Shown here: positions 26,318 through 41,348 of the stretch, piece after piece
Layout of the letters: each line of letters begins with the position of its first letter
Numbering within the stretch: position 1 is the stretch's first letter
Source: Candidatus Gottesmanbacteria bacterium
Lineage (GTDB): Bacteria; Patescibacteriota; Microgenomatia; UBA10105; UBA927
Direction: 5' to 3'
Length of the DNA: 64,000 nucleotides
Assembly (NCBI GenBank): GCA_963714095.1
Contig: OY970230.1
Coordinates: forward strand, 134,206 to 198,205
Notes under the pieces: generated by a model
What the model was told of the DNA's origin: nothing
Database searches by the model: none
The model's input: the letters and a program-made list of their open reading frames with translations, nothing else
Translations under genes and position numbers: made by a program

Positions 26318-26332
26318 ACAGTCGCTTATTTC

Positions 26333-26538: not shown

Positions 26539-27318
26539 ATGAAAGACATTCAAAACGAGAAAGACAAGCGGAATATAGCTCTTCAACTTGTGGGAATTAA
26601 AGACCTTATTCTTCCCGTTGTTATTGAAAATAAAAACGGAGAACCCGTCCAAATTTCTGCGACATTTAGCTGCTATACAGATTTGCCTTCCCATCAACGC
26701 GGCACACACATGAGCCGTCCCGCGCAACTATTACATACGCTTGAGGATAAACCGTTAACGCTATCCCAGCGGAAAGACATTGCAACACGCATTAAAGAAT
26801 CGCTTCATGCAAAACTCGCACTGCTAAATTTTACCTTCACCTATCATATTAAAAAAGAATCGCCGGTATCAAAAATGAAGAGTTATATGTCATATCCTTG
26901 CGAAATGCAGACAGTTTCAAACGGAATAAAATCAGCAAACCGCACAACCGTTCACGTACCGGTACTCCTACTCTGTCCGTGCAGTAAAGCCATAAGCGAA
27001 CAGAATGCCCATAATCAACGGGCAGTTATTACCATCCAAGTTGAATCAACAAATTCAGTGTTTCTCGAGGATCTTATTACCATCGCGGAAAACGCAGCAA
27101 GCAGCCCGCTCTATACAATTTTAAAACGTCCGGATGAAAAGTATGTAACAGAACGTTCATACGCGAATCCAAAATTTGTTGAAGATGCCGTAAGGGATGT
27201 CGCTTTAAAATTGAAAAAAATCAAAGCTATAACTGCCTTTAGTGTCGAATGTGAAAGCCAGGAATCAATTCATGGTCACAACGCATATGCACGGTTCTCA
27301 CAAGGAGGGCTTCAATGA
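26539..27318 (+). CDS. folE2: GTP cyclohydrolase FolE2/MptA-type (first step to the 7-deazaguanine precursor)
   Basis: Motifs QRGTHMSR, CPCS and ESIHGHNAYA, characteristic of FolE2 (DUF198). A TATAAT lies at about 26520. Confidence 0.8.
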   Translation: MKDIQNEKDKRNIALQLVGIKDLILPVVIENKNGEPVQISATFSCYTDLPSHQRGTHMSRPAQLLHTLEDKPLTLSQRKDIATRIKESLHAKLALLNFTFTYHIKKESPVSKMKSYMSYPCEMQTVSNGIKSANRTTVHVPVLLLCPCSKAISEQNAHNQRAVITIQVESTNSVFLEDLITIAENAASSPLYTILKRPDEKYVTERSYANPKFVEDAVRDVALKLKKIKAITAFSVECESQESIHGHNAYARFSQGGLQ

Positions 27319-27692
27319 AATCTGCGATCGTGTATATCAATAAAGAGTTTACCTTTGAAGCGGCACATAAACTGAATAACTATAACGGAAAATGCGCGAA
27401 TCTTCACGGGCATACGTATAAACTGCGCGTTACAACAAAGGGACCGGTTCACAAAAACGGCTTAGCTATTGATTTCGTTGATCTTAAAAAGATTGTGGAA
27501 GACAAAATTCTTATCCGGGTAGATCATACCTATTTAAATGACCTGATAAGCCAGCCTACGGCAGAAAATATTATCGTTTGGATGTGGCAAACACTGGACA
27601 AATACTTACCGCTCTATGAATTGTCTCTCTGGGAGACGCCAACCAGCTGGGTGACGTATCAGGGAAAGCATAAAATCTATGCCAACAAATGA
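27315..27692 (+). CDS. queD: 6-carboxy-5,6,7,8-tetrahydropterin synthase
   Basis: CANLHGHTYKL zinc/catalytic motif, 125 aa. AAGGAGGG Shine-Dalgarno immediately upstream. ATGA overlap with folE2. Confidence 0.85.
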   Translation: MKSAIVYINKEFTFEAAHKLNNYNGKCANLHGHTYKLRVTTKGPVHKNGLAIDFVDLKKIVEDKILIRVDHTYLNDLISQPTAENIIVWMWQTLDKYLPLYELSLWETPTSWVTYQGKHKIYANK

Positions 27693-28428
27693 ATGCTACC
27701 AACCTACACCAGGCGAAATCCAAGCGGCTCAGTTGAAACCGAACCTACTTAAAGTTTCAGGCGATTCCACTTTTTTTACTATTCAGGGAGAAGGAGACAG
27801 CATAGGAAAACCGGCAGTATTTTTACGTCTGCATCTGTGTAATCTCACCTGCACTTGGTGCGATACACCCTACACATGGAAGCGCACCACTCCGGAATTC
27901 TGGCAGGAAAGCCAGGATTGGGATATAGATCGGGCAGTATCGGAAATCAGCATCTTCAATCAACATCGACTGGTTCTTACGGGCGGAGAACCCATGATGC
28001 AACAAAAAATGATCTCGCAATTACTGAAGCGTGTTCCTGATTGGGATATAGAAATTGAAACAAACGGAACAATCTCTCCTATTCAGGATCTTGCAGAGCG
28101 GTGCCAATTCAATGTGTCACCAAAACTCGCCAATTCAGGCAATAAAGAACGATCACGATTAAAACCAGATGTTTTACGTGCATATAACGCCTTACCCAAA
28201 ACAACATTTAAGTTTGTGGCACAATCCGTTGATGATGTTCGGGAAATTGACGCAATTGTTGCAGAATGTGCTATTGACCCTCATAAAATTATTATTATGC
28301 CAGAGGGAAAAAATGAGGCATCAATCCGTGAACATGCACTCGCCGTAGTGGAAGAAGTAAAGAATCGCGGCTGGCGCCTGGTTCCGAGACTTCAGGTTAC
28401 CTTATGGGGTAATCAGCGAGGTATCTGA
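27679..28428 (+). CDS. queE: 7-carboxy-7-deazaguanine synthase (radical SAM)
   Basis: CNLTCTWCDTPY radical-SAM CxxxCxxC motif in a QueE-type context (FFTIQGEGDSIGKPAVFLRL), 249 aa. Confidence 0.85.
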   Translation: MPTNECYQPTPGEIQAAQLKPNLLKVSGDSTFFTIQGEGDSIGKPAVFLRLHLCNLTCTWCDTPYTWKRTTPEFWQESQDWDIDRAVSEISIFNQHRLVLTGGEPMMQQKMISQLLKRVPDWDIEIETNGTISPIQDLAERCQFNVSPKLANSGNKERSRLKPDVLRAYNALPKTTFKFVAQSVDDVREIDAIVAECAIDPHKIIIMPEGKNEASIREHALAVVEEVKNRGWRLVPRLQVTLWGNQRGI

Positions 28429-29154
28429 GATATTGAACAACCAGGGCTCTTTGACGAATTCTTCCGAATACCCTTTAGACGACATCATCTGCTGAGCCTT
28501 TTGTTCAATTTTTATCAATAAAGAGAATGTTTGTTGAAAATTTCTCGAGTCGAATGATTCTAGCTCACGTATGAACGAGCTTTCTATTAATTTCTCTCTT
28601 CTTATAAAATACCATCTCCACTTAAATGTGGGCACGGGCTTATCATAATAGATAAAACAGAATTTTGATAACGCATCGAGTGTTTTAAACATAAACATCC
28701 ATGATGTAATCAGATCACGCCGTTTCATTGTTTTTTCAAAATTGTAGGATTGAAACAATTCTTTGTATAGTCTGATGAGTATCCTTTGATATATTTTTTT
28801 ATGATATTTATTTAACTCCAAAAACTTCTTCTTCAATATTTTTTGAGGGTCATACAATATATGAGCCTTCTCCCTAATCCAAAATTCATCCGTGTCGGGA
28901 TCTGTTTTTTGTAATAGCTGACAAGAGGAAACTGTGTCTACTTCTATCTTTACCTCTTCGCTTTTGAACTGACTCATCTTAAATTCACTGTCTTCTTTAT
29001 CACAAACGAGTTTAATATCAATATCAGCAAGAGCGTCAGATATTCCGTATGCGGTTGATCCAATCCAGATGATACCCTGAAGACCGGGGACATTTAAATA
29101 CTTTTTGCTTACGTTTAAAGCAATTTTTTTAAAATCAGTAACATTTTTCATCAT
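28402..29154 (-). CDS. Pol-beta superfamily nucleotidyltransferase (ANT/Lnu-like fold)
   Basis: NTase motif IWIGSTAYGISDALADIDIKLV (G[SG]...D.D). Alpha-helical C-terminal region. Confidence 0.6.
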   Translation of the reverse strand: MMKNVTDFKKIALNVSKKYLNVPGLQGIIWIGSTAYGISDALADIDIKLVCDKEDSEFKMSQFKSEEVKIEVDTVSSCQLLQKTDPDTDEFWIREKAHILYDPQKILKKKFLELNKYHKKIYQRILIRLYKELFQSYNFEKTMKRRDLITSWMFMFKTLDALSKFCFIYYDKPVPTFKWRWYFIRREKLIESSFIRELESFDSRNFQQTFSLLIKIEQKAQQMMSSKGYSEEFVKEPWLFNISDTSLITP

Positions 29155-30119
29155 ACGGGTATTCCGGTAACTCTTAGTATATCGCGCTTTATATCACCAT
29201 GAAATCCGGGCTTATTCCATTGCCAAATCCAATAATTAAGACTTTCGAACGGTTTATAATAATTAACCTGGATTGTAATATCGTCTTTATTCATTTTTCC
29301 TACTGAAGCATATCCTTCGTGAAAAGCATCGCTTAAATCCATATTTTCCCGCGAATTTTCAAAAGCAGCACTCACTCTGGTTAAATCCCAACCGGGAATC
29401 CAATATTTCGCGAGTTCGAAATCTACAATACCGGCAATTCTCTGAGTATCAGGATTGATGATTATATTCTGTGGAGCAAAATCACCGTGACATAAGGTTG
29501 GTCTAACGCGGCAATGAGTAAGAATCGGACTTGTTAACCTATCAGTAAAATAATTAACGTGGGCTTGATGTAAAACACCTAAACTAAGTCCAAATTCAAG
29601 GTGTCTGAGTGTGTCTTGAGTAAAACAATCCTTCCAATCTGGAAATTTATCACCGGCATCGCCAACATCACCAAAATAGGGAGCGGTAATTCCGTGTATT
29701 CGGGATAAATATGTTCCTACTTCATGCGCGATTGCCCGTAAACTATCTCTGGAAAAATTGGATCCATTCATTAACGTATCAAAAGGTACTCCCCTAACTT
29801 CCTCCAAAAGTATTGCTGCATATCCCGACTTATCTTTTCCCAGATAAGTTGATTGAGAGGTATGTATACCCAAAGTCTCCCGAATCAATCGGGAAACAAT
29901 CAACTCTCTTTGAACTTTCAGCTCAGGTAATTCTCCCATTTCATCCGGCGTATTCGGAAAAATTTTTAAATAATATGATTTCAAATACGGAGACGCGTCG
30001 TGAGAAAAATATAAAAGGGTGTTTTGACTCGGTCTATCAACGGATTTAAACGAATACCCTTGATATGCTTCACCAACTTGCACTACGTGTTGAAAATATT
30101 CAGCATTCATTGCTACCAT
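29151..30119 (-). CDS. APH/choline-kinase-family small-molecule kinase (aminoglycoside-phosphotransferase-like fold)
   Basis: Brenner motif LCHGDFAPQNIII and metal-binding GIVDFE. Confidence 0.7.
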   Translation of the reverse strand: MVAMNAEYFQHVVQVGEAYQGYSFKSVDRPSQNTLLYFSHDASPYLKSYYLKIFPNTPDEMGELPELKVQRELIVSRLIRETLGIHTSQSTYLGKDKSGYAAILLEEVRGVPFDTLMNGSNFSRDSLRAIAHEVGTYLSRIHGITAPYFGDVGDAGDKFPDWKDCFTQDTLRHLEFGLSLGVLHQAHVNYFTDRLTSPILTHCRVRPTLCHGDFAPQNIIINPDTQRIAGIVDFELAKYWIPGWDLTRVSAAFENSRENMDLSDAFHEGYASVGKMNKDDITIQVNYYKPFESLNYWIWQWNKPGFHGDIKRDILRVTGIPV

Positions 30120-31300
30120 CCTATTTGCACTATTCCTTTTGGATTTGCTACAGCTTTATCCATTCGTTGAAAATCTTCCATATATTCGCACACCCGACAT
30201 TTACTGCCCGGCGTCATATCCGGAAAATGACCTTTCCTGAACTCAGAATATTTTTTACCTTCCCAAATATCTGCAAATCGCTCAGACCTGATATTGCCCA
30301 TAATAAATTTATCTCTACTTGTATCAGCAAAAGGACCATTATCATCATAAAGATATAAACAGGGTCTGACGTTACCCTGGGGATCTATCATGACACTGTA
30401 TTCACCGATATGGCACTGAGGGTGATTTTGAGTCTTCAAATATGAAGAGGGCGCAAGTACATTGTTATCGAAATCTTCAACCCGGATTAAACCGTGTGCA
30501 GCATATTTTATTGCAGATGAAAGATCCACTTCAGTGACAGGATGTAGATTTTCCAATCTGGCGATAAAAGACTTTAATATATCGAACGCTGAGTGGTTAA
30601 GCTCGTATGATCCGGTTCCATGAACGAGCGCCATCCTGAGCGTATCAACCCCGATATGATCTATATCCTCTGCAGTAACCGCGGTCAAATCCCGAATATT
30701 ACCTTTTTGAATAGTAAAGTTTGCAGATATTCTTACGTGATTCGCATCTAACCCCCATTCATCACGTGCTTGTCTTAATCGATGGATTGATTGTAATGTT
30801 CTCCCAAATGCATCAAAGGTTCCGTCAGGCATTCTGATTCCGTTATGGCTATCCTTATTAAACCCATCAACTGAAAAGGCAACATCAGTTTCCGTATCAA
30901 GTACCGCCTGTATAACAGCATCATCTAATTTTATTCCCGCAGTATATAACTCCGGTTTTATTCCATTCGTCCGTATATCAGTCAAAATTTGAGGCAAGTC
31001 TTCTCTCATAACAGGCTCCGTCCCGACGAGGGTTATCTTTCTTGTATGAAGCGTTTGTAACTGATCCATCAAGTCATCAAGCTCGGAAGTATTTAATGCG
31101 TTCTCCGATGGAGCACCTGAAGAAATCCACTTGTGCCGATCGCACATTTGACACCTCAGATAACAGGCATAATTAATTTGTAAAATTACGTTATTCGGAC
31201 CGATAGTCGCTGGGAGTTCACCGCTTCTGGATAAATCCTGATATACGCGTTGATCGACCTCTTTAAGTGAATAAGGGTTATAACGAAAAGCTTCATTCAT
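30113..31300 (-). CDS. radical SAM enzyme with C-terminal SPASM/twitch-like Cys cluster
   Basis: NYACYLRCQMCDRHKW (CxxxCxxC) at the N-terminus. C-terminal Cys motifs ...CHIGEY...RPCLY...GSKCRVCEY. Confidence 0.7.
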   Translation of the reverse strand: MNEAFRYNPYSLKEVDQRVYQDLSRSGELPATIGPNNVILQINYACYLRCQMCDRHKWISSGAPSENALNTSELDDLMDQLQTLHTRKITLVGTEPVMREDLPQILTDIRTNGIKPELYTAGIKLDDAVIQAVLDTETDVAFSVDGFNKDSHNGIRMPDGTFDAFGRTLQSIHRLRQARDEWGLDANHVRISANFTIQKGNIRDLTAVTAEDIDHIGVDTLRMALVHGTGSYELNHSAFDILKSFIARLENLHPVTEVDLSSAIKYAAHGLIRVEDFDNNVLAPSSYLKTQNHPQCHIGEYSVMIDPQGNVRPCLYLYDDNGPFADTSRDKFIMGNIRSERFADIWEGKKYSEFRKGHFPDMTPGSKCRVCEYMEDFQRMDKAVANPKGIVQIGW

Positions 31301-31369
31301 AATTTGCGTTTAAATACAAAAACAGATAGTATTATATACTAAATTAGGTTGATATGACAATAAAAAGCT

Positions 31370-32254
31370 ATGGTCAAGCATGAAATGTTTTTACCAATTG
31401 AAGCCCCTGCATTTATCCGACACGCGCCACTGGATTTGAGCATTGTCATACGTTGCGGCAGAGACAAAAACGGACTAATCCGTTTTCTTACATCAGTTAA
31501 TGAAAACGTTGAAGTAGTCGTAAGCGCAGCAGAAGATGCTTCATTTATTCACGAATTTCAGGAAAAAGGGTACAAAATTGCTCCTCATACATACGGAAAC
31601 TGGAGCAGCGCCGCACAGGCGGGAATAAATGCATCTACCAATAATGACGTTATTATCATGGATTCTGATTCAGTTTTTGGTGAGGGCGCAATAAATACGA
31701 TTGATAAAGCACTTAAAGACGGTCACTTATTAGTACAACCAAGAATTATCTTTATGGATAACGGAACGCCGTTAAGTAAAATAATCGCACAGGCAAGAAC
31801 CTATGAAAACAGAAGAGTACCCAAATCATATTCTCCGGGTTTAGGATTGAAAGTGCAGGAATTGACTGAAAGAATCGGAGTCGGAGGAAACGTATATAAC
31901 TTATCGGTTGCCTACGGAGATGACGGAGATTTAGATCAACGAAGAAGAAATGCAGGCATAGACGTATATGTTGCGGAGGACGCATTAATATATTCAGATC
32001 CGAATACGCTTGAACATGAATTAAAAACAGCGTATCGTTTTGGAATCGGAGAAAGGCAATCGCAACAGGGAAAAACGAACCAAAAAAATATCGTTGATAT
32101 CATGAATGAGGAATTCTTTTCTAAAGAAGCTAAGGAATACTATATGAATCTTATACGACAGTTTGGCATACCAACTGCCATGTTTATGATGTTCTGCAGA
32201 TCCGCCTATGTCACTGGGTTTCAAACGGCGGGCAATATAAAAACTACCCTATGA
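31370..32254 (+). CDS. GT-A fold (GT2-like) glycosyltransferase-like protein
   Basis: LDLSIVIRCGRD (GT2 N-terminal strand) and DxD-like VIIMDSDSVF. Confidence 0.45.
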   Translation: MVKHEMFLPIEAPAFIRHAPLDLSIVIRCGRDKNGLIRFLTSVNENVEVVVSAAEDASFIHEFQEKGYKIAPHTYGNWSSAAQAGINASTNNDVIIMDSDSVFGEGAINTIDKALKDGHLLVQPRIIFMDNGTPLSKIIAQARTYENRRVPKSYSPGLGLKVQELTERIGVGGNVYNLSVAYGDDGDLDQRRRNAGIDVYVAEDALIYSDPNTLEHELKTAYRFGIGERQSQQGKTNQKNIVDIMNEEFFSKEAKEYYMNLIRQFGIPTAMFMMFCRSAYVTGFQTAGNIKTTL

Positions 32255-33831
32255 ACGAACGACTACTATCAGGTCCCGTTGCGTACGCAGCCACACAATA
32301 TAAAGAATATAACACTACTGATCAGGCGAGTAAGCTTGAGCATTTAGATTCGGTTGGCAGAGCGTATATCGAACAAGGTCACGCTCCCTTTTATGATGCA
32401 CAATTTCTGGAACATCATATTGCGAAACTAAGAGAAGAACAAAGAGGTAACAATTTTTCTTTTACATGGATGCCGGAAAATCCCCACGGTAACTTTTTAA
32501 GGCAAAATACCCATCGTGATGGGTACATCATGCCCGAACCAGCGACGATTGAAAGTATCGAGAAGCTTATTCATGATGAACCGGATATACGAAATATTGT
32601 TTTTGCTGTATATTCCAACGGGTATAGTATTTTCAGAGATATTGCAACACATCTTCACAAAGAACATCCGCAAATCGAAATCGTCGCGGGAGCAGTAGGA
32701 TCGTTATATCGCGAAACACAACAATTAGCTCAGCATATCCTTGGGGGTAACCAGATTGATGATATGCGGAGATTACTTGGTGAACCGGTTTTAAATCCTC
32801 TTCACATATCCACTGCCCCATCTCATACGTCTACCACATATAACGGTGCTACGAAACAAAGCACATATGGAGTTATGATAAGCAGCTACGGTTGTCCATA
32901 TCGATGTGATTTTTGTCCGACTACAGCACAATATCAGGGTAAATACAGTACTCCGCATAGTGCGGATGAAATTGTGAAAGCCATACATGAAGCACACGAT
33001 GCTATCGCTCCTGATAAACCAATAATGTCACTCAGTATTGCTGACCCACAGGGTTTGGGCGATGTTCCTGTATGGAAGGAGGTTTTTCAAAGATGCCAAA
33101 ATACGGGTTTCATGGTAGAACTGGCGACAACGACATCTTCAAAAATATTAGAACAGTATTCTCCTGATGAACTAACGCAGGGAGATTTATACCTTTCGTG
33201 TGTGAATATAGGGGTTGAATCTATGATATCACCCTATGTAAAAAACCGCGGAATAGATTTGAGGAAAGAAATTGAAAAGTATCAGTCTGCCGGGATACGT
33301 ATAGCTGCAACATTTATCGTTGGGCATGATTGGCATAACCAAACAAATATTTGGGAGGACGTTGATAAAATTCAACAGTTAGGAGCGTCCGGCTATATCG
33401 TTTCCAATATGATGATGGAACGCGGGACAACTATTTTTAGTAAAATGCAAGCTGATGGAAGACTATTGGATGTGCCGCCTGAATTTGAGGCGACATACGG
33501 ATATCAGTCATTCAGACATCCGAACTTTGAACCGGGTTTCAATGCCATGGTTCCTATCCTTTCACAAATTGAAGCCAAGCTAAATCAAGGAATTGATGTT
33601 TTTACCGGTGATGAACACTTCTATCTTCAAAGGGTTAATGCGCGAATTACAGAAACTCAAACTCAATTAAGAACACGAATGAAAGAAATAGAGAGAACTG
33701 TTATGGCAGATAGTTCATTGCATCCGGATGCAAAAACTTCTGAAATCAAAAAACAACAGGTACAACTATACTATGATACTATTTTCAGGAATATTGACCT
33801 GTTTCACCCATATATAACCTGGAATGTCTAA
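32251..33831 (+). CDS. radical SAM enzyme, class-B-like (putative N-terminal Rossmann/B12-binding-like domain followed by radical SAM core)
   Basis: SSYGCPYRCDFCPTT (CxxxCxxC) at about residue 215, preceded by a flavodoxin-like block IVFAVYSNGYSIF...IEIVAGAVGS. Confidence 0.55.
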   Translation: MNERLLSGPVAYAATQYKEYNTTDQASKLEHLDSVGRAYIEQGHAPFYDAQFLEHHIAKLREEQRGNNFSFTWMPENPHGNFLRQNTHRDGYIMPEPATIESIEKLIHDEPDIRNIVFAVYSNGYSIFRDIATHLHKEHPQIEIVAGAVGSLYRETQQLAQHILGGNQIDDMRRLLGEPVLNPLHISTAPSHTSTTYNGATKQSTYGVMISSYGCPYRCDFCPTTAQYQGKYSTPHSADEIVKAIHEAHDAIAPDKPIMSLSIADPQGLGDVPVWKEVFQRCQNTGFMVELATTTSSKILEQYSPDELTQGDLYLSCVNIGVESMISPYVKNRGIDLRKEIEKYQSAGIRIAATFIVGHDWHNQTNIWEDVDKIQQLGASGYIVSNMMMERGTTIFSKMQADGRLLDVPPEFEATYGYQSFRHPNFEPGFNAMVPILSQIEAKLNQGIDVFTGDEHFYLQRVNARITETQTQLRTRMKEIERTVMADSSLHPDAKTSEIKKQQVQLYYDTIFRNIDLFHPYITWNV

Positions 33832-33852
33832 CGTCGTTCAGGTTGTCATTAC

Positions 33853-34932
33853 GTGCCAAACTGTAGTAGAATCAGCCAAGGAATTACTATGGTACGGAAT
33901 CTGGAAATCGAACCACGCAGGCTTATCGAAAATCAACGTACGTTGCCACCGATATGGTGGGACAGTTTGAACGGACTTACCGACCCTCATAAAGTATTAT
34001 TAGTTACTACTCCTTCTGCAGAGTTGCAGTTTAATCCAGTCTCAGCTGGATTTAATATTGTTGACCATCTGCACGTGGCAGATGAAACGCAAAAAACAGC
34101 AGACGAGATGCTACTCTACCCCGGCGATACTATTGAAAAAGTTTTCGCTGTGGGCGGCGGAAGAGCAATAGATATGGCAAAACTTATAGCCCACCGATGG
34201 GATAAAGAATTAATTGCCATTCCGACGATTCTTTCGACCGATGCGTTTCTGGTAAATTCTACGGGAGTGAGAACTGACGGATGCGTCAAATATATTCAAT
34301 CTAAACAACCTGATCTGATACTTTTCGACATGGATGTATTAAAACAAGCACCCTATGTATATCATGCTTCCGGTTGTTGTGATGTTCTCTCCATTGTTAC
34401 CGCCGTATCGGATTGGAAATTGGCTCATGACAAAGGTAAATTACTTCCCGATGAACCATATATCGAATCGGTTGCACAAACATCAAAAGCGATAGTGAGC
34501 TATCTATTTGAAAATGCTGAAAATATTTCTGCAAAAACTCCTGAAGGGCTTACTGCCATCATCAATGCTCTTTCTATGGAAGTTGAGTTATGTAATCTGT
34601 ATGGAAATAGCCGACCGGAAGAAGGCGGTGAACATTTTTTTGCATATGCTATTGAATCCCGTTTACCTCACGCAATACATGGAGAACTAGTAGGACTTGG
34701 TATTCTCTTAACTGCATATATGCAGCACCAACCATGGCAAGAGGTACAACATTTTATGGACAGCATCGGAATGAATTATCGCCCTCAAGGTATATCTACC
34801 CAGATAATCACTGACACACTGGAGGGAATGCGTGAGTATGTTGAACGTCATGCGCTTCGATACAGTATCTGGAATGAATATCATCATAATGAAAAAAACA
34901 TCCAGACATTTCTAAATGCCATACATTTATGA
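33853..34932 (+). CDS. iron-containing ADH superfamily polyol(-phosphate) dehydrogenase, glycerol-dehydrogenase/G1PDH(AraM)-like
   Basis: VFAVGGGRAIDMAKLIA (NAD-binding GGG..D.AK) and IAIPTILSTDAFLVNS (IPT..STDA block of GldA/G1PDH rather than the VPTTLLAQVDS of DHQS). Confidence 0.6.
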   Translation: MPNCSRISQGITMVRNLEIEPRRLIENQRTLPPIWWDSLNGLTDPHKVLLVTTPSAELQFNPVSAGFNIVDHLHVADETQKTADEMLLYPGDTIEKVFAVGGGRAIDMAKLIAHRWDKELIAIPTILSTDAFLVNSTGVRTDGCVKYIQSKQPDLILFDMDVLKQAPYVYHASGCCDVLSIVTAVSDWKLAHDKGKLLPDEPYIESVAQTSKAIVSYLFENAENISAKTPEGLTAIINALSMEVELCNLYGNSRPEEGGEHFFAYAIESRLPHAIHGELVGLGILLTAYMQHQPWQEVQHFMDSIGMNYRPQGISTQIITDTLEGMREYVERHALRYSIWNEYHHNEKNIQTFLNAIHL

Positions 34933-35633
34933 ATGAAATACCACTAAAAACAACAGAACTTGAGGCGGTCATGAAAGGGTTAGAGCGACAATCAACAAAA
35001 CGGGTTGTCCTACTCTATTCCGGCGGCGCGGACAGTACTGCAGCAGGACTAAAACTTCGTGAAGACGGATATTCCGTCTACCCTATATTCTTTGACTATA
35101 ATCAAAGCGCCCGGGACGCAGAGCGTTTTCTTGTAAGTAATGCTCCCGATACACTTGGTTTTGAAAAAACGAAAATCGTGCGAACAGACTTACTTACAGA
35201 CCTAAGTCACAGCGCACTGCTTGGAGGCGACGCCAAAGATGACACATCGGCATGGGTTCCCGGTCGAAACACGCTTTTCATGATTGCTGCGGGCATTTAT
35301 GGACATCAGATAGATGCTGACGGCATCGCCATCGGATATATGCGTTCAGATGAAGGGGTATTCGGAGATTCAAATAAGCTGCATCACAAAATAGTAGAAA
35401 CACTTCTTGAAAAAACACTTTCCCGACCTATGGAAGTTCGCTTACCTTTGGCACAAATGACAAAAATGGACGTATTGCAGTACCTCAACGATCACAGAGT
35501 TATTGATCTTACCGTATCGTGTTGGAATGCAACACTTCAGGGTAATACAGTTCAAACGTGCCATACATGCGCAAACTGCGTCGAACGTGAAGAAAGCCTT
35601 CGTGGGATTATCTACCAATACGGTAAAAAATAG
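34929..35633 (+). CDS. queC: 7-cyano-7-deazaguanine synthase
   Basis: PP-loop VVLLYSGGADST. C-terminal zinc motif CWNATLQGNTVQTCHTCANC. ATGA overlap with the preceding Fe-ADH gene. Confidence 0.85.
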   Translation: MNEIPLKTTELEAVMKGLERQSTKRVVLLYSGGADSTAAGLKLREDGYSVYPIFFDYNQSARDAERFLVSNAPDTLGFEKTKIVRTDLLTDLSHSALLGGDAKDDTSAWVPGRNTLFMIAAGIYGHQIDADGIAIGYMRSDEGVFGDSNKLHHKIVETLLEKTLSRPMEVRLPLAQMTKMDVLQYLNDHRVIDLTVSCWNATLQGNTVQTCHTCANCVEREESLRGIIYQYGKK

Positions 35634-35676
35634 AGTTTAGATTGATTTTACGGTCTAAAAGCGTATAATATTCCCT

Positions 35677-36648
35677 ATGCCTGTCTCAGAAATTCTCAAA
35701 CGACTCGACGAATACGACATCCGTCCCAACGAACAACTTGGGCAACATATTCTCATTGACCCCAAATGGCTTGGCTATATTGCTGATCAAACCTGTCGTG
35801 GCGGACATGTTATAGAAATCGGAGCCGGACCAGGGAACCTGACTGAACCCATTGCGGCGCTCGCAAAATACGTTACTGCGATTGAACTGGATCGCCGATA
35901 TGAACCCATGTTGCAGGATCTTCATGAACGACATCCCAACGTAACCGTTATATTCGGGGACGCCATTAAGCAGGATTTTCGACAATTACAAAAACAATCT
36001 GATAGAACACTGCAGATTATCGGAAATATCCCCTATCACATTTCAGAACCGCTTATGAAAAAACTTACTGATGTCCCTATGGAAGATGCCGTGCTTACGG
36101 TCGGCGATAAACTGAGTGAAACATTACGGGAAACGAATCCTTCTAGCATTAATTTCACAAGACTTTCTCTTCTTGCATTAGGTTTTTTCGACGTAGATTT
36201 ATTAGCTAAAATTCCAAAAAGTGCCTTTTATCCAATGCCAAGGACAGAATCGCAAATCATAAGGATTACGCCGAAAATGAAAGCGGAATCATCCAATCCC
36301 GGTATTCGCGTTATTCAACAATTATTTCTAAGCGGTGATAGTTCATCAGTCGAAAATATTATGAGAACGGCACTCAACGGCGGAATATCGGATCGAAAGC
36401 TACGATACAAAGATGAACAGAATAGATACGAACGTCGGGAAACACGAAGATCGTTGGAAATGATGAGGCGCGGATATAATGCTTCTCAAGACCTCTCGGA
36501 AGAAGATGGGCAACAAGGCATGTCTAAAGATCCGATATCACTAATGAACATACCGGGACAGATTCTCACCCACAGATTTTCCAGTCTTAGCAATGACGAA
36601 GTGTGCACGCTCTCAAAAGCTATCTTAGACGTCTATCCAAGTCAATAA
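35677..36648 (+). CDS. KsgA/Dim1/Erm-family rRNA adenine N6-dimethyltransferase-like protein with a ~100-aa basic C-terminal extension
   Basis: QHILIDPKW, HVIEIGAGPGNLTEPIA and IIGNIPYHISEP (NLPYNIS-type catalytic motif). The C-terminal extension is unusual: RKLRYKDEQNRYERRETRRSLEMMRRG. Confidence 0.65.
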   Translation: MPVSEILKRLDEYDIRPNEQLGQHILIDPKWLGYIADQTCRGGHVIEIGAGPGNLTEPIAALAKYVTAIELDRRYEPMLQDLHERHPNVTVIFGDAIKQDFRQLQKQSDRTLQIIGNIPYHISEPLMKKLTDVPMEDAVLTVGDKLSETLRETNPSSINFTRLSLLALGFFDVDLLAKIPKSAFYPMPRTESQIIRITPKMKAESSNPGIRVIQQLFLSGDSSSVENIMRTALNGGISDRKLRYKDEQNRYERRETRRSLEMMRRGYNASQDLSEEDGQQGMSKDPISLMNIPGQILTHRFSSLSNDEVCTLSKAILDVYPSQ

Positions 36649-37399
36649 ATCCGGAACCTTTAGATTTTTCTATCAACTCTATTTCACGACTCCACTGTTC
36701 GTTCATGGCACATTTTTTACTCACCAAATCAGATACCATTTCTATTATCGGGTTGCTATCCTGATTATCTGATAAATTAATCTTCTTATCATCTATATAA
36801 ACCGACTTATTCAAAAGATCCAACACTATCTTCCCTTTTCGTTTCAAATAAATGGTTATCTCTCTTCTTGGATTGCCATATCCGCAATAAAGTTTCCAGG
36901 GAATTTTTTTCTTGGTTAAATAAAACCATAAATCAACATCGTGTATCCCTAGATCATATAACGGATCACATTCATAATCCCATGGTGGCTTCATTCCTAA
37001 TCGGTAACTTGTTATATAATCAATTTCTGACAGTTCAATAGTTTTCTTAAAATATTTGACGGCAGGATTATATCGTTCTAAAGTTGACTGATAAAAAAGT
37101 AATTTTTTCTCTTTGGCTAACGTTTCCAATTCTTTTGCATCGGATGATGAAAAACATACGGGCTTTTCGCATAAAACATTATATCCGTGTAACAGGAGCA
37201 TTTTTGAACATTTAAAATGTAATGGGGTTGGTGTCGCGACGATTGCAAAATCAACAGTCTCACCATATCGTATAAATTTTTCAACTGTATTGAAGTACAT
37301 CCCGTGAGATACCGGAAGGATATCCACGATGTATGTTGCATGAAGAAGGCTATCATAAAGTTTTCCCATTCTTCCGTAACCGATTATTGCTGTAGTCAT
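36620..37399 (-). CDS. Gfo/Idh/MocA-family NAD(P)-dependent oxidoreductase
   Basis: N-terminal Rossmann TAIIGYGRMGK and the family EKP motif (VLCEKPVCFS). Confidence 0.6.
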   Translation of the reverse strand: MTTAIIGYGRMGKLYDSLLHATYIVDILPVSHGMYFNTVEKFIRYGETVDFAIVATPTPLHFKCSKMLLLHGYNVLCEKPVCFSSSDAKELETLAKEKKLLFYQSTLERYNPAVKYFKKTIELSEIDYITSYRLGMKPPWDYECDPLYDLGIHDVDLWFYLTKKKIPWKLYCGYGNPRREITIYLKRKGKIVLDLLNKSVYIDDKKINLSDNQDSNPIIEMVSDLVSKKCAMNEQWSREIELIEKSKGSGFIDLDRRLR

Positions 37400-37403
37400 A
37401 CAA

Positions 37404-38468
37404 TTATTTATTCACAAAATCAGTAAGTTTTTTCGCAAGAGTCTGCCAAGACAGGTCTTTTACCAAATTCGTATTGTATATTCTGCAAGCAGCGTCCAAT
37501 AATACAGCCCGTTCGATACCTTTACGCCATGCATCAACAGTGGAAGCAACCAAATACCCGGTCTTTCCATTTTTCAACAGCCAGTCAATTCTTCCGGTTC
37601 CCATAACGATCGGTTTGCCGACGGCTAAATACTCGCTGATGGCAATGGGACTACAATCCGTTTCAACCGGGAATACAAGCACATCGGCGATATTTGTATA
37701 TTTAGGCACATCAGCATAGGAAACAGCACCGCAAAGAATAACATTTTTACGTTTTGGAATTTCCCTCTTCACAGGCCCGTCTCCTACGATAAGGAAAATA
37801 TAATTATCCGGAATTGCGCGTGCAATGAGTTTAATATGTTCATAAAACCTACCGAGCTTTCCCGTATATACAACGATCTTTTTATTGAGTAAATCAGTAT
37901 GGAATGTGCTTGAAAAATCTTTTTTCAATGCTACAACATCCGGCTGCGAGTACGGATAAAAAAGTGTTTTATCGTACCCATTAGGAATAACGATTACATC
38001 CTTTGTTTTTAATCCGGACTGCTGGAGCATTTTTAAATTTACTGGGGATTGAGAAACAACTTTGTTTGCTTTTTCCAAAAGGTATGAGAGTCCGTATTGT
38101 AATAAATAATACGTTGCGTTTATACCATATTCCTTCAGGTACATCTCGTTATACCAATCGATACTGTCAAATAGCAAAGAAATTTTACATGTTTCTTCTA
38201 TAAGCAACCCGCTCAGAGGATTATCTACCATCAAAAGATCGAATCGCCGGGTGCGCAGATATTTCTGCAAACGCTGTCTTTCGCGGATAACATCATCAAT
38301 TGAACAAATAACTGCATGGCGGAAAAAACTAAAAGAAATATCCGTACAATGTTGTGCTAAAAACTGTTCCCGCTGGGGAAATCCGGATACATACGACTGG
38401 CTGAAATTCTGTAAGCTTTGAGCATAAACTTTATCGCCGATTTTCAGTATCTTTTTCATTGAAACCAT
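37404..38468 (-). CDS. GT4-family (GT-B) glycosyltransferase
   Basis: C-terminal VLVFPVETDCSPIAISEYLAVGKPIVMGTGR resembles the GT4 E..E region. Confidence 0.55.
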   Translation of the reverse strand: MVSMKKILKIGDKVYAQSLQNFSQSYVSGFPQREQFLAQHCTDISFSFFRHAVICSIDDVIRERQRLQKYLRTRRFDLLMVDNPLSGLLIEETCKISLLFDSIDWYNEMYLKEYGINATYYLLQYGLSYLLEKANKVVSQSPVNLKMLQQSGLKTKDVIVIPNGYDKTLFYPYSQPDVVALKKDFSSTFHTDLLNKKIVVYTGKLGRFYEHIKLIARAIPDNYIFLIVGDGPVKREIPKRKNVILCGAVSYADVPKYTNIADVLVFPVETDCSPIAISEYLAVGKPIVMGTGRIDWLLKNGKTGYLVASTVDAWRKGIERAVLLDAACRIYNTNLVKDLSWQTLAKKLTDFVNK

Positions 38469-39463
38469 CCTTGTAATGCATGGGTAACTCTATGTATCTC
38501 CGCATGAGTAAGATTCCAACGGCATGGTATGGCAACGATAGAAGAAGTTACATCTTTATAGTTTTGTTTTTGATCATCGGGGAGCATGTCTTCGTCATAA
38601 TATACCAATGTTTGGATACCCTGTTTATCCATATATGTTCTAAATTTATTTCTATCCGTGATAAGCATATTAAAAACTGAATAGGTATGATAGGTGTTCG
38701 CTTCTTCCGCTAAAAACGGTTGATATCCCGGAATAACTTTTTTATACTCGTGTGCTATATCCCGCTGGGTTGCGATACGTGTGTCATACCCCTTAAGCTC
38801 TTTGAGAAGATATTCTGCTTTAATTTCATCAATACGCAGATTCAGTGCGATCGAATCTGTCATCGCTCCGTTTTCCCGCCCGGATTCTATAAATGTTTTC
38901 ATCTGCCGGTAATAGTGTTCATCACTCGTAACAACGGCTCCCGCGTGACCACAAGCATGAAGTGATTTGGTTGGATAAAAGCTGAAGCAACCTATTTTCC
39001 CGAAGGTACCCACAAATTTACCGTTAAACTTTGCTCCGAATGCCTGACAGGCATCCTCAATATAATTCTGCATTTTTATCTGACCAAGCAAATAATGTGG
39101 CTGACCGAAAAGATGAGTAATCGTCATCAAACTCGACCGTGATGGTATTCTGACATTCTTCTTCGGATTGTAAGGAATATACCGTTTAAAATTCACGGTA
39201 TACTGCAGCATTTTTGCCGGCTGATATGTTGCAGGGAACGTATATGGATCAACAGTTAAACTTTTATAGTTATCTTTCAACACCCAATACGCGGCAAGGA
39301 GCGCTGCCGTTCCGTTATTCGTTAATACAACGTACGGAGCATGGAGATATTCCTTTAATTTTTCCTCCAGCTCTTTTGTTTTTTTACCGTCAACCCACTT
39401 ACCGCTGTTATAGATATCACTTGTATAGTTCGAACCTAATTTATATATGGAAATATACTTCAT
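38456..39463 (-). CDS. DegT/DnrJ/EryC1/StrS-family PLP-dependent sugar aminotransferase
   Basis: DACQAFGAKFNGKFVGTFGKIGCFSFYPTKSL block with PLP Lys (YPTKSL). Confidence 0.75.
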   Translation of the reverse strand: MKYISIYKLGSNYTSDIYNSGKWVDGKKTKELEEKLKEYLHAPYVVLTNNGTAALLAAYWVLKDNYKSLTVDPYTFPATYQPAKMLQYTVNFKRYIPYNPKKNVRIPSRSSLMTITHLFGQPHYLLGQIKMQNYIEDACQAFGAKFNGKFVGTFGKIGCFSFYPTKSLHACGHAGAVVTSDEHYYRQMKTFIESGRENGAMTDSIALNLRIDEIKAEYLLKELKGYDTRIATQRDIAHEYKKVIPGYQPFLAEEANTYHTYSVFNMLITDRNKFRTYMDKQGIQTLVYYDEDMLPDDQKQNYKDVTSSIVAIPCRWNLTHAEIHRVTHALQGWFQ

Positions 39464-40185
39464 AATAAATTCAGCAAATCAATAGCCTTATGATTTAATG
39501 GCTGATAATTATTTACAATAAACGCTTCACCATACGATGCTCCGATAGACTTTCCCCTAAATTCCGCAAGATGGAACAATTTAGTACGTAACCATTGCTC
39601 ATCAGCTCCATGCTCACCTTTCACTGATGCATACAATGAAAATGCTTCTATTTTTCTTTGGATATTTTGCTTCGACAATTCAGATACGAAATGGAAACTA
39701 AATATAGATGTCATCTCCAAATCAATCTCTCCCTGCAACACAACAGGCGCTTTCCATGTTTGTGTACCGCCACAGAGTTCACAGTCGCTTTGGAAATTAG
39801 CTTCAGGAACAATTTCTCCAAGCGTTCTATGGTCTATATGCTTATCTTCTGCATGATGTGTGATAATAACATCCGGTTGAACACGTCGAATCTCTTTAAT
39901 GGTTTTTTGAATAAGCAGTCCTTTGTCTTTTTGAAGACGCATGTCCTGAAGTTTTAGAAATTTCACGGAATAACCCAAATATTTACTGCTTTTAGTCGCT
40001 TCGCTCATTGCTCTATGGCGACGCGTGTTTTGCGTCTCCGTTTTAAAGTACGCCTGGTCATTCAGGGTGTAATAGGTTACGAAAACTTTATGACCGTGCT
40101 TCACGAGCTTATCCATCATCGCTCCGCACATGATCACTTCATCATCCGGATGTGCCACTAAAACAAGAATTTTCATAGATTGCAA
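39460..40185 (-). CDS. PIG-L/LmbE-family N-acetylglucosaminyl deacetylase
   Basis: VLVAHPDDEVIMCGA zinc-binding motif and downstream HHAEDKHIDH. Confidence 0.75.
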   Translation of the reverse strand: MQSMKILVLVAHPDDEVIMCGAMMDKLVKHGHKVFVTYYTLNDQAYFKTETQNTRRHRAMSEATKSSKYLGYSVKFLKLQDMRLQKDKGLLIQKTIKEIRRVQPDVIITHHAEDKHIDHRTLGEIVPEANFQSDCELCGGTQTWKAPVVLQGEIDLEMTSIFSFHFVSELSKQNIQRKIEAFSLYASVKGEHGADEQWLRTKLFHLAEFRGKSIGASYGEAFIVNNYQPLNHKAIDLLNLL

Positions 40186-40299: not shown

Positions 40300-40572
40300 T
40301 CATTTATTCGAATCAAATGGCGCACTTATATTACATTCCTTACAAGACAAATAATATAAAACAGTGCCTGTAGGCATTGATTGACCAAATAATGGTCTGG
40401 TAACGGCATTTTTGATAGTAACTTCTAACGGGACACTTTTCGAACAATTTTCCAAATGAGGAAAATTGCCTCTCAATTCCTCTTGAGAATAAACAGCAAG
40501 ATTTGTTTTCCAAGAAAAACCTTCCTTTAAGAATTGTCCGATTACGTGAAGTTTATTGGTTATTTTTTCCAT
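40300..40572 (-). CDS. hypothetical small protein
   Basis: 90-aa ORF with no recognisable motifs. Sits between the LmbE gene and a methyltransferase gene on the same strand. Confidence 0.3.
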   Translation of the reverse strand: MEKITNKLHVIGQFLKEGFSWKTNLAVYSQEELRGNFPHLENCSKSVPLEVTIKNAVTRPLFGQSMPTGTVLYYLSCKECNISAPFDSNK

Positions 40573-40589
40573 AAATATTTTGTTTAAAA

Positions 40590-41348
40590 TTATATCCTCT
40601 TTGCAACCAGTACGATTCTATGTCGAGGAAGTTGAATACCCTTTTCTGTTTTGAATTTTACTACGTATTCTTTGAGCAACGCTCCGTCTTTTTCGGAATC
40701 AAAATCTTCAAAAATAGGCACTCCTTGTAAAAATTTGTCTACATCCTCATACGATGCATAATATTCGTCATAAAAATATTCCTGGGCGAAAACGATGTTA
40801 AATCCTGCGTCAATAAGTTTTTGTTTTTCCTTTTCTAACCTTGAAGTACTCCATGCCTTATATCCCTGCCCTCGCCCAAATACTTCTTTGATTGCCTGAC
40901 AATCCCTTTCACCTATATCAATTCCCACAAAATAGCCGTCTGGTTTCAATAATCGTTGAAACTCAAGATATGGTGTTGGTCCCCGGCGGGAAAAAATAAC
41001 ATCAAACGATCTATCAGAAAATGTTGTTCTTTGCGCGTCTTGAAGTTTAAATGTAAAATTTTTAACTACGAGTACCTTTTGTTTTTCTCCCGCAACTTTG
41101 AGTAATTCCTTGGATGTATCAATACCTGTAATCGATAAAAAAGACTTGGCGATTCCAAAGGAAAACTTGCCGTCTCCGCAACCCGCATCAAAAGCTTTTA
41201 TCTTGTTACCCGCTAAACCAAGGAGTTTTTCTTTGAAAACTTTTTCAGGATCTCCGGCTGGATATTCCGTACGGTAATCAACACGACCGGTACCAAAGGC
41301 ATATCCACCGAATTTCTTTGCAACTTTATCGTAAAAATTTGTGGTCAT
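40590..41348 (-). CDS. class I SAM-dependent methyltransferase
   Basis: Motif I KAFDAGCGDGKFSFGIA and motif II VIFSRRG. Confidence 0.65.
   Translation of the reverse strand: MTTNFYDKVAKKFGGYAFGTGRVDYRTEYPAGDPEKVFKEKLLGLAGNKIKAFDAGCGDGKFSFGIAKSFLSITGIDTSKELLKVAGEKQKVLVVKNFTFKLQDAQRTTFSDRSFDVIFSRRGPTPYLEFQRLLKPDGYFVGIDIGERDCQAIKEVFGRGQGYKAWSTSRLEKEKQKLIDAGFNIVFAQEYFYDEYYASYEDVDKFLQGVPIFEDFDSEKDGALLKEYVVKFKTEKGIQLPRHRIVLVAKRI

Follow-up and report, generated by a model that had tools for sequence, protein, structure and literature searches.

A non-canonical QueC homolog in a putative 7-deazaguanine and amino sugar gene cluster of Candidatus Gottesmanbacteria and related bacteria

Introduction

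A 64-kb stretch of the genome of a Candidatus Gottesmanbacteria bacterium (contig OY970230.1, positions 134,206 to 198,205; hereafter the window) contains four closely spaced plus-strand genes at window positions 31370–35633. They encode a GT-A glycosyltransferase, a large radical S-adenosylmethionine (SAM) enzyme, an Fe-ADH_2 dehydrogenase resembling glycerol-1-phosphate dehydrogenase (G1PDH), and a homolog of QueC. Which pathway do these genes serve, and what does it make? An earlier interpretation of the DNA (the sequence-only reading) had the QueC homolog carrying out the last step of preQ0 synthesis and suggested that the radical SAM enzyme, as a class-B-like member, takes part in C-methylation or another modification of a deazapurine glycoside or of its sugar or polyol partner. 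The host belongs to the Candidate Phyla Radiation (CPR, Patescibacteria), bacteria with genomes of about 1 Mb in which secondary metabolism is believed to be almost lacking. We consider, with a probability of about 0.5, that the four genes belong to a mobile cluster of about 16 kb for a conjugate of 7-deazaguanine and an amino sugar, a secondary metabolite of the nucleoside or aminoglycoside kind.

Results

A gene core shared by ten loci

The four genes are part of a 17-gene island of about 16 kb (window 25524–41348; Table 1). We compared the window with nine further loci (L001, L003/L004, L005, L008, L088, L089, L090, L092 and L093). The island is common to at least ten CPR loci of the Microgenomates type, with gene order and strand shuffled. 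Where the contig is long enough, the loci share the large radical SAM enzyme, Fe-ADH_2, the QueC homolog, a PIG-L deacetylase, a DegT aminotransferase, a GT4 glycosyltransferase, a Gfo-family dehydrogenase and FolE/QueD/QueE. The invariant core of the ten loci comprises the supply of 7-carboxy-7-deazaguanine (CDG) through FolE or FolE2, QueD and QueE, replaced in one genome by YhhQ-type transporters; a QueC-fold enzyme of non-canonical type, in translational coupling with the G1PDH-like dehydrogenase; a radical SAM enzyme whose architecture is that of AprD4/class B; and a four-gene aminosugar operon (BshB-like deacetylase, DegT, GT4 and Gfo-family dehydrogenase). Homologs of the radical SAM enzyme and of the GT-A enzyme are few, and almost all come from Patescibacteria (Roizmanbacteria, Microgenomates, Gottesmanbacteria, Shapirobacteria). 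A contig scan for the radical SAM enzyme recovered one close locus (L008), the other 79 hits being proteins of 20–29% identity from other phyla.

The sequence-only reading placed the four genes in one co-transcribed unit, and across the loci this arrangement is not a conserved operon. The GT-A gene precedes the radical SAM gene in the window only. Among the junctions, the coupling of Fe-ADH_2 to queC alone is conserved: the two genes are co-directional in nine of the ten loci, with a 4-nt overlap in seven and a gap of 1–3 nt in two. The exception is also the closest relative of the window, L008 (radical SAM enzyme 71% identical), where queC lies on the opposite strand. The radical SAM gene stands beside Fe-ADH_2 in 7/10 loci, co-directionally in five and divergently in two. 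L089 and L092 have the order aminoacyl-tRNA synthetase (aaRS)-like gene, radical SAM, Fe-ADH_2, queC, PIG-L, DegT, GT4 and Gfo on one strand, with 4-nt overlaps in the series from radical SAM to Gfo; in these one-strand loci queC is placed between the genes for the G1PDH-like enzyme and the deacetylase.

According to a published rule, a 7-deazapurine secondary-metabolite cluster has FolE, QueD and QueE, with or without QueC, together with tailoring genes and without enzymes of nucleic-acid incorporation (bioRxiv 10.64898/2026.04.15.718813). The window cluster has this composition: TGT, DpdA, QueA, QueF and QueG were found neither in the 64 kb nor in the other loci examined.

The locus L093:6133–17144 (GCA_049287205.1, Microgenomates group bacterium) shares synteny with the window across eight genes and keeps the QueC homolog. 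Within 10 kb it has no QueD or QueE, FolE is reduced to a remnant of 108 aa, and two Vut_1/YhhQ-family genes for queuosine-precursor transporters flank the cluster. This suggests that the pathway is able to run on salvaged deazapurine.

Base composition sets the region apart as well. The G+C content is 0.38–0.43 in window 18000–42000, which covers the island and about 7 kb to its left, against 0.47–0.51 in the flanks. The cluster ends directly at ftsZ (41382–42524), and elsewhere (L088) recombinase, resolvase or phage-like genes lie beside it. Low G+C together with mobile-element neighbors is consistent with horizontal mobility.

The QueC homolog departs from the canonical signature

The assignment of the 234-aa protein to the QueC family holds (Table 1). 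Canonical QueC (cluster 1 of PF06508) is defined by the motifs SGGxDS, YxQxHxxE, VPxRN, YPDC and C(x)8CxxCxxC; the substitutions Y35A, R99A and Y131A abolish its function, and Y131F leaves E. coli QueC partly active (2026 preprint, PMC13082051). We examined these motifs in the window protein and 21 relatives, hereafter the variant QueC subfamily. The ATP loop SGGxDS is present in 21 of the 22 members (YSGGADS in the window protein), and V/I-P-x-R-N in all of them (VPGRN in the window protein). YxQxHxxE, on the other hand, occurs in none. The window protein reads YNQSARDAE at this place, and 21/22 members have YxQ(x)5E, with Ser, Pro, Thr or Asn and Ala, Ser or Asn replacing Arg-His; the same YxQ(x)5E variant is carried by Cap9 (PMC13082051). 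YPDC is likewise absent from all 22; at its position the window protein reads FGDS and the relatives F-G-D-N/S, with the aromatic residue kept. All four cysteines of the zinc motif are there, but their spacing is C(x)12CxxCxxC instead of C(x)8CxxCxxC.

The window protein scores 97.3 bits against TIGR00364 (cut-off 150.3) and is at most about 30% identical to canonical QueC sequences. In an exhaustive search the variant subfamily comprised 16 representative clusters above 127 bits, followed by ordinary QueC at 70 bits or less. Since two of the five canonical motifs are missing, synthesis of the preQ0 nitrile by this protein is not assured; the last preQ0 step of the sequence-only reading had been an assumption, and neither the window protein nor its relatives carry the full canonical signature. 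RoyL-type QueC homologs are CDG amide synthetases acting on amino acids (bioRxiv 10.64898/2026.04.15.718813), and Cap9 is the third-best PDB match of the window protein (9nto_B, E = 9e-9). RoyL, which we compared by its description, keeps the canonical Tyr-His-Glu spacing, unlike the variant subfamily. As this proven amide synthetase retains the spacing, the loss of the histidine shows divergence and not its direction.

The dehydrogenase is related to G1PDH

The Fe-ADH homolog groups with G1PDH and GldA, as the sequence-only reading had proposed, and not with dehydroquinate synthase (DHQS) or 2-deoxy-scyllo-inosose synthase (DOIS), a grouping which in that reading would have pointed to an aminocyclitol branch. 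Its best PDB match is G1PDH 5fb3 (E = 1.1e-25), followed by GldA, with DHQS chains at E = 1e-3 to 6e-3. The NCBIfam model for G1PDH (NF002022) matches at E = 7.8e-48 with 163.2 bits against a cut-off of 413; aroB reaches 22 bits against a cut-off of 305, and Pfam DHQ_synthase E = 0.0024. The nucleotide loop GGGRAIDMAK begins at residue 101, and D177, H261 and H276 align with conserved Asp, His and His, which we take to be the metal triad by analogy with GldA and G1PDH. By sequence, G1PDH (EgsA/AraM) and GldA are thus the closest families, with the GGG loop and the Asp/His/His residues kept. The enzyme differs from G1PDH in falling far under the equivalog cut-off, in about 80 unaligned N-terminal residues, and in its fixed place beside a QueC-fold gene in a secondary-metabolite-like cluster.

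Stand-alone homologs of this enzyme also occur in large genomes, in housekeeping contexts and with no deazapurine genes. One, at L091:10001–11038 in a 6.5-Mb genome, represents homologs about 45% identical over 73% of the Fe-ADH_2 length. They may be ordinary bacterial enzymes of the G1PDH/AraM type.

The large radical SAM enzyme has AprD4/class-B architecture

The three cysteines of the CX3CX2C motif are invariant in 17 sequences of the 526-aa enzyme and its homologs, with no further invariant cysteine. In the AlphaFold2 (AF2) model (pLDDT 87.6), the core fold matches radical SAM structures in Foldseek. Ahead of the core, at residues 69–175 approximately, lies a Rossmann-type domain of five β-strands and five α-helices (5β/5α), which agrees with the N-domain of cobalamin or flavodoxin fold expected in the sequence-only reading. 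The model also shows about 65 extra residues at the N-terminus and, at the other end, a long helical domain. In Foldseek, AprD4 ranks first (6fd2, paromamine-bound; E = 3e-11), followed by the B12-dependent enzymes MgmA/QCMT, TsrM, CysS and TokK (E = 1e-8 to 1e-10).

Sequence searches gave less. Pfam found PF04055 alone and did not detect the B12-binding domain PF02310 in the 526-aa protein; PF02310 is carried by the distant relatives P0017 and P0018 (28% identical). A single-sequence search of the PDB found no relative and profile searches gave weak matches only, with the TokK cobalamin domain matched at E = 0.002. A Rossmann domain of five β-strands and five α-helices defines class B, and AprD4 has a Rossmann-related domain that binds no cobalamin (PMC12931638). 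As AprD4 shares the architecture without the cofactor, the fold alone does not decide cobalamin use. The "class-B-like" architecture of the sequence-only reading therefore stands, while cobalamin use and methylation are not confirmed. With AprD4, a cobalamin-independent diol dehydratase, as the top structural match, C-methylation is only one option and not the best-supported chemistry.

Gene junctions and the extent of the unit

The four plus-strand open reading frames (ORFs) are present as reported, with 294, 526, 359 and 234 aa. The junction distances of −4, +21 and −4 nt given for them hold for these ORFs, and both overlaps are ATGA start/stop overlaps (cccTATGAacg and tttATGAatg); the middle distance probably needs correction. 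The 359-aa version of the Fe-ADH ORF begins with GTG (33853). The start is most likely ATG 33889, which has the Shine-Dalgarno-like motif AAGGA 6 nt upstream; the public gene call (P0046) has 347 aa. With this start, 57 nt and not 21 separate it from the radical SAM gene, and our scan for promoters and terminators found no terminator-like site in this gap. A KsgA/Erm-like methyltransferase gene begins 43 nt past queC on the same strand, so the unit probably has five genes.

Overlaps of 4 nt occur at 12 of the 44 same-strand junctions in the window. As they are common in this genome, the overlaps alone are unremarkable and uninformative; the signal above chance is their conservation across genomes, not overlap as such. 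The promoter and terminator scan gave signals no higher than shuffled expectation, and operon boundaries cannot be drawn from it. A promoter-like site, TTGATT-16-TATAAT, ends 8 nt ahead of the ATG of the KsgA-like gene.

The GT-A glycosyltransferase belongs to an accessory module

The GT-A assignment made in the sequence-only reading is upheld by an AF2 model with pLDDT 90.9 and by an invariant DxD motif, whose residues D98 and D100 are conserved throughout an alignment of 24 sequences. The model has 213 PDB matches at E ≤ 1e-3, and those listed are GT-A glycosyltransferases, including WrtF, hyaluronan synthase, AvpGT and TarP/TarS (Foldseek E = 1e-9 to 1e-7). Pfam GT2 models stay below gathering (PF13632, 22.7 against 27; PF00535, 18.6 against 23.3). 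Single-sequence searches found no PDB relative of the GT-A enzyme or of the neighboring SPASM radical SAM enzyme. AvpGT is a GT2 enzyme that glucosylates tubercidin at the 3'-O position (PMC11959488).

The GT-A and SPASM radical SAM genes form a divergent pair, with 28–126 nt between them, in the window (30113–32254) and in L001, L003, L006, L007, L088 and L090. In L007 the pair occurs without the core, and in L006 it lies on an element bearing integrase and relaxase genes, without deazapurine genes. It is missing from L005, L089, L092 and L093. The GT-A gene therefore belongs to an accessory module.

In clusters without GT-A, paralogs of class II aaRS lie just upstream of the large radical SAM gene (Table 1). 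They are truncated GlyRS-like proteins, or a SerRS-like protein without the N-terminal arm, all under the equivalog cut-offs and with the anticodon-binding domain kept, and they are often accompanied by a GNAT protein and an Asp/Glu racemase. They possibly act as aminoacyl ligases or serve as copies for self-resistance.

Other genes of the island

The remaining genes of the island are listed in Table 1. The aminosugar and resistance-like neighbors carry most of the functional information, and links to them were absent from the sequence-only reading.

Table 1. Genes of the island in the window, and aaRS paralogs of clusters in other loci. E-values follow the family names.
Feature	Position	Strand	Evidence
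SAM-dependent methyltransferase, membership uncertain	25524..26270	+	Pfam Methyltransf_11 1.4e-8
GTP cyclohydrolase FolE2, first step towards CDG	26539..27318	+	Pfam GCHY-1 2.7e-83
QueD / 6-carboxytetrahydropterin synthase	27315..27692	+	Pfam PTPS 1.3e-33
QueE-like radical SAM enzyme (7-carboxy-7-deazaguanine synthase)	27679..28428	+	Pfam Radical_SAM/Fer4_12
DUF4037-type protein, possibly a nucleotidyltransferase	28402..29154	-	Pfam DUF4037 6.7e-5; faint Polbeta/NTP_transf_2
APH-fold small-molecule kinase (biosynthetic or resistance)	29151..30119	-	Pfam APH 3.1e-15; ortholog in L001
SPASM radical SAM enzyme, divergent to the GT-A gene	30113..31300	-	Pfam SPASM 4.1e-14, Radical_SAM 1.2e-9
GT-A fold, GT2-like glycosyltransferase with DxD (D98-S-D100)	31370..32254	+	AF2, Foldseek, alignment
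Two-domain radical SAM enzyme, class-B/AprD4 architecture, CX3CX2C at C215/C219/C222	32251..33831	+	Alignment, AF2, Foldseek
G1PDH-like Fe-ADH_2 dehydrogenase	33889..34932 (alternative GTG 33853)	+	PDB, NCBIfam, motif positions
Non-canonical QueC-fold ATP-dependent enzyme (variant QueC)	34929..35633	+	Pfam QueC 5.4e-32
KsgA/Erm-family N6-adenine-type methyltransferase (self-resistance or tailoring)	35677..36648	+	Pfam RrnaAD 1.4e-36
Gfo/Idh/MocA oxidoreductase, UDP-GlcNAc 3-dehydrogenase-like	36620..37399	-	Pfam GFO_IDH_MocA 6.6e-13
GT4 (GT-B) glycosyltransferase	37404..38468	-	Pfam Glyco_trans_1_4 8.5e-16; weak BshA match 3e-4
DegT-family pyridoxal phosphate aminotransferase (keto-sugar or inosose type)	38456..39463	-	Pfam 2.5e-49
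PIG-L family N-deacetylase, BshB1-like	39460..40185	-	Pfam PIG-L 2.1e-25
90-aa ORF, membership uncertain	40300..40572	-	No Pfam match
SAM-dependent methyltransferase	40590..41348	-	Pfam Methyltransf_31 9.1e-17
aaRS paralog	L089:4065-5279		
aaRS paralog	L092:1940-3160		
aaRS paralog	L093:7258-8442		
aaRS paralog	L090:2281-3417		
aaRS paralog	L005:7338-8540		

Among the genes of deazaguanine supply, FolE2 passes its NCBIfam cut-off (266 bits against 215), and the best NCBIfam matches of the QueE-like protein are all QueE models, at 1e-21 to 8e-29 and all under their cut-offs. The PIG-L, DegT, GT4 and Gfo genes form an operon convergent to the four-gene unit. The Gfo protein matches UDP-GlcNAc (N-acetylglucosamine) 3-dehydrogenase in NCBIfam at 2.2e-17, under the cut-off, and 7bvj in the PDB at 3e-11. 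The PDB matches of the DegT protein include Gln-scyllo-inositol transaminase (7b0d, 9e-31), QdtB and WbpE, the nearest being aminotransferases of inososes and 3-keto sugars. For the PIG-L protein, NCBIfam gives BshB1 at 1.5e-25, with 90 bits against a cut-off of 182.5.

The KsgA-like enzyme has B. subtilis RsmA (6ifs, 1.1e-26) as its best PDB match and keeps the SAM and NIPY motifs. Its gene is found in 8/10 core-bearing loci and also in L007. The protein has an extra, highly charged C-terminal tail of about 120 residues (RKLRYKDEQNRYERRETRR...).

At the edges of the island, BLASTP found no ortholog of the 25524..26270 methyltransferase in the other loci, and orthologs of the 40590..41348 methyltransferase lie within the clusters of L001 (45%) and L090 (57%). 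The 214-aa ORF at 24826–25470, tested as a Vut_1 transporter, is not one. Rfam detected no preQ1, cobalamin or SAM riboswitch at the gathering score or at E ≤ 1. The DUF4037-type protein has orthologs of 238–250 aa at L001:11640–12356, L003:11532–12251 and L088:11533–12252, and in these three loci the gene directly adjoins the large radical SAM gene on the opposite strand.

Other features of the window

A separate polysaccharide locus occupies window 1262–8150; beside three GT4 genes and a methyltransferase gene, it encodes a Wzx-like flippase and a membrane glycosyltransferase of the PMT_2 type. Two more PMT_2-like genes are present at 8330–9790 and 18422–20002. In a 1048-aa protein encoded at 20033–23179, a PQQ-like β-propeller is joined to DUF5060 and to a glycosidase domain of the apiosidase-like kind; a sulfatase-family gene (23246–24757) lies next to it, and in other loci neither of the two genes accompanies the cluster. 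The mur/dcw region at 46767–62411 includes some non-standard genes: a FemAB-family gene (50364–51353), a second DegT-family aminotransferase (51907–53244), and a 379-aa Asp/Glu racemase ORF (48136–49275) with an N-terminal extension, which overlaps a long ORF at 48912–49982.

Discussion

A proposed route to a deazaguanine conjugate

A small-molecule pathway to a deazapurine glycoside, as put forward in the sequence-only reading, is still the best reading of the locus; the specific preQ0 and C-methylation chemistry attached to it is not borne out. We propose the following route. Gfo and DegT would add an amino group to a sugar of the GlcNAc type, as a second amine. The GT4 enzyme would join this sugar to a hydroxyl acceptor, plausibly a polyol resembling glycerol-1-phosphate that the Fe-ADH enzyme would produce by reducing a keto-phosphate, by analogy with MshA and inositol phosphate; the acceptor might also be another keto compound reduced by that enzyme. 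The deacetylase would free the 2-amine. The variant QueC would preferably adenylate CDG and then transfer it to the freed amine, in the manner of RoyL, Cap9 and QatC; alternatively, it would complete the nitrile to preQ0, which would then be glycosylated. The large radical SAM enzyme could dehydrate a 1,2-diol as AprD4 does, with the adjacent dehydrogenase reducing the ketone, or could perform a cobalamin-dependent C-methylation. The GT-A and SPASM radical SAM enzymes would act as an accessory module that adds and modifies a further sugar, the aaRS paralogs as other, lineage-specific decoration, and the KsgA/Erm-like enzyme would either shield the ribosome of the producer or N-methylate the product.

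The most specific form of this proposal has the variant QueC as a CDG:aminosugar amide ligase, which, with its G1PDH-like partner and the BshA/BshB-like module, gives a 7-deazaguanine-7-carboxamide glycoside, with self-protection by the KsgA/Erm-like enzyme and salvage feeding in some genomes. We regard it as tentative, possible but rather doubtful in its details. If true, it would represent a new chemical class, and no antibiotic pathway of the nucleoside or aminoglycoside kind would have come from CPR bacteria before it.

Several points weigh against a deazaguanine and amino sugar conjugate. The product and the enzyme activities are predicted from the genes. All NCBIfam matches of the tailoring enzymes are under curated cut-offs, so that their substrates are guesses, and the structural matches of the radical SAM enzyme have TM scores of only 0.5–0.6 at 12–14% identity. 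The Fe-ADH enzyme may have either of two proposed roles, the supply of a polyol phosphate or the reduction of a ketone as partner of the radical SAM enzyme. The lost histidine gives no direction of divergence, and preQ0 may still be the product of the variant QueC. The KsgA-like gene may have a role other than resistance, and the 1.09-Mb genome may encode a TGT outside the 64 kb that the negative result covers.

Alternative explanations

The chemistry of the sequence-only reading, in which a canonical QueC finishes preQ0, GT-A glycosylates preQ0 or a G1PDH-derived polyol, and a class B radical SAM enzyme methylates carbon with methylcobalamin like GenK, GenD1 and TokK, has clear points of contact with the data. 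The 5β/5α N-domain and the CX3CX2C core fit a class I B12-dependent radical SAM enzyme, with TokK, TsrM, CysS and MgmA among the matches; PF02310 in P0017 and P0018 and the profile match to the TokK cobalamin domain agree with this, as does the retention of the ATP loop, VPxRN and the zinc cysteines in the variant QueC. The combination of Gfo, DegT, methyltransferase and radical SAM genes also parallels GenD2, GenS2, GenN and GenD1 of gentamicin synthesis. However, the top structural match is the cobalamin-independent AprD4, PF02310 is absent from the enzyme itself, and the QueC homolog fails both two of the five motifs and the TIGR00364 cut-off. GT-A is missing in 4/10 loci and lies beside the radical SAM gene nowhere else, and, to our knowledge, CPR bacteria generally lack cobalamin synthesis. 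We therefore find this chemistry unlikely. We also considered a cluster of the BtrC/BtrS/BtrN/BtrM/BtrD type, for an aminoglycoside with 2-deoxystreptamine, and rejected it: the Fe-ADH enzyme is G1PDH-like and not DOIS/DHQS-like, and the SPASM radical SAM enzyme, which is accessory and not core, has no detectable relation to relatives of solved structure such as BtrN.

The cluster might instead serve the cell itself, by making a cofactor like bacillithiol or mycothiol, or a glycoconjugate of the cell envelope, on an acylated glucosamine–polyol scaffold. In the synthesis of these thiols a GT4 enzyme transfers GlcNAc to a hydroxy acid or polyol phosphate, a PIG-L enzyme deacetylates it, and the amine is acylated in an ATP-dependent step. 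The GT4 enzyme, BshB1-like deacetylase and ligase follow this logic, the ligase being an aaRS paralog in L005, L089, L090, L092 and L093, and there are GNAT acetyltransferases in L005, L088, L089 and L090, and LytR-CpsA-Psr, PMT_2 and polysaccharide genes nearby in the window. Yet deazaguanine genes or transporters are always in the cluster, most loci carry the KsgA/Erm-like gene, and the envelope genes in the flanks do not accompany the island elsewhere, whose patchy distribution beside mobile-element genes is unlike that of a housekeeping cofactor; own use is decidedly improbable. Hypermodification of nucleic acid is more improbable again. In this case a TGT from another part of the genome would place deazaguanine in tRNA or rRNA, where it would be glycosylated and aminoacylated, in analogy with mannosyl-, galactosyl- and glutamyl-queuosine, with RNA recognition by the KsgA- and aaRS-like proteins. 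The former indeed keeps the RNA-adenine NIPY motif and the latter the anticodon-binding domain, queuosine-precursor transporters of the YhhQ type flank L093, and eukaryotic queuosine glycosyltransferases are known in the GT-A and GT-B families. Against it stand the lack of TGT, DpdA, QueA, QueF and QueG in the regions covered, the mobile and patchy distribution, and the enzyme set, in which two radical SAM enzymes occur with a kinase, a deacetylase and an aminotransferase, as is typical when sugars of small molecules are tailored. A neighborhood of unrelated genes by chance, in a compact genome with routine overlaps of 4 nt and with a junction of GT-A and radical SAM seen in this genome only, is already contradicted by the comparative data, with the same ten-gene core in ten loci of differing flanks and orders and Fe-ADH_2 coupled to queC in nine of them; its probability is next to nil.

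Significance

A conserved, mobile pathway of 15–17 genes that uses GTP, SAM and UDP-sugars would be a real investment for such a genome, and its product, which we suppose to be a deazaguanine and amino sugar conjugate, could serve as weapon or signal for an episymbiotic lifestyle. If the KsgA/Erm-like gene confers resistance, the product would target the ribosome, and uncultured bacteria would hold a reservoir of rRNA-methyltransferase resistance genes. The cluster also defines a QueC subfamily that fails the published canonical signature and has a context of its own, with a fixed dehydrogenase partner and an amine-unmasking deacetylase. The radical SAM enzyme represents a small, well-modelled branch of the AprD4/class-B architecture and could help to separate its cobalamin-dependent members from the independent ones.

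Comparison with known systems

The radical SAM enzyme resembles AprD4, which deoxygenates C3' in apramycin synthesis, in having two domains, of which the N-terminal one is Rossmann-like. The substrate of AprD4 is a glucosamine-containing pseudodisaccharide and its partner is AprD3, and a dehydrogenase gene lies beside the radical SAM gene in 7/10 of our loci. The fold of AprD3 differs from that of the neighboring G1PDH-like Fe-ADH reductase here, and our clusters have no 2-deoxystreptamine pathway, no DOIS and a SPASM enzyme without detectable relation to BtrN. The class B methyltransferases TokK, TsrM, CysS, GenK/GenD1 and MgmA/QCMT share the domain order, the fold and the CX3CX2C motif; in contrast to them, the enzyme has no PF02310 match, and it has the extra N-terminal segment and the C-terminal helical domain described above.

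The aminosugar module recalls bacillithiol and mycothiol synthesis (BshA-BshB-BshC; MshA-MshB-MshC-MshD) in its succession of GT4, PIG-L and acylation, in the GNAT genes of some clusters and in a PIG-L protein nearest to BshB1. It differs in having no cysteine ligase, with the variant QueC and the GlyRS- or SerRS-like paralogs as candidate acylating enzymes, in the additional amination by Gfo and DegT, and in sub-cut-off scores.

The variant QueC has the same fold and ATP loop as RoyL, Cap9 and QatC, in which adenylated CDG ends on an amine and no nitrile is formed, and it has YxQ(x)5E in common with Cap9. Cap9 (from CBASS type IV) and QatC modify the N-termini of proteins in defence systems. 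Unlike the variant QueC, none of the three has a dehydrogenase or aminosugar genes coupled to it.

A search of the literature on CPR bacteria with deazaguanine, QueC or biosynthetic gene clusters found no description of this cluster, and the survey of 7-deazapurine clusters makes no mention of Patescibacteria (bioRxiv 10.64898/2026.04.15.718813). An unspecified biosynthetic gene cluster beside a macrolide-lincosamide-streptogramin resistance gene has been reported from CPR bacteria (PMC9927545) and may be of the same kind.

The closest parallel is with the 7-deazapurine clusters of toyocamycin/sangivamycin, tubercidin, huimycin, dapiramicin and roseomycin A, which likewise combine CDG genes, a QueC-family gene and tailoring by glycosyltransferases and methyltransferases, with no TGT nearby. 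Huimycin itself combines preQ0, O-methylation and GlcNAc (PMC7439116). In comparison with these clusters, ours reside in CPR bacteria instead of actinomycetes, lack a phosphoribosyltransferase and have a QueC homolog of a separate subfamily. They also have additional genes for the G1PDH-like enzyme, the AprD4/class-B radical SAM enzyme, the SPASM radical SAM enzyme, the BshB/DegT/Gfo module and the KsgA-like protein. Phylum, QueC subfamily and added enzymes set the cluster apart from the toyocamycin, tubercidin, huimycin, dapiramicin and roseomycin families.

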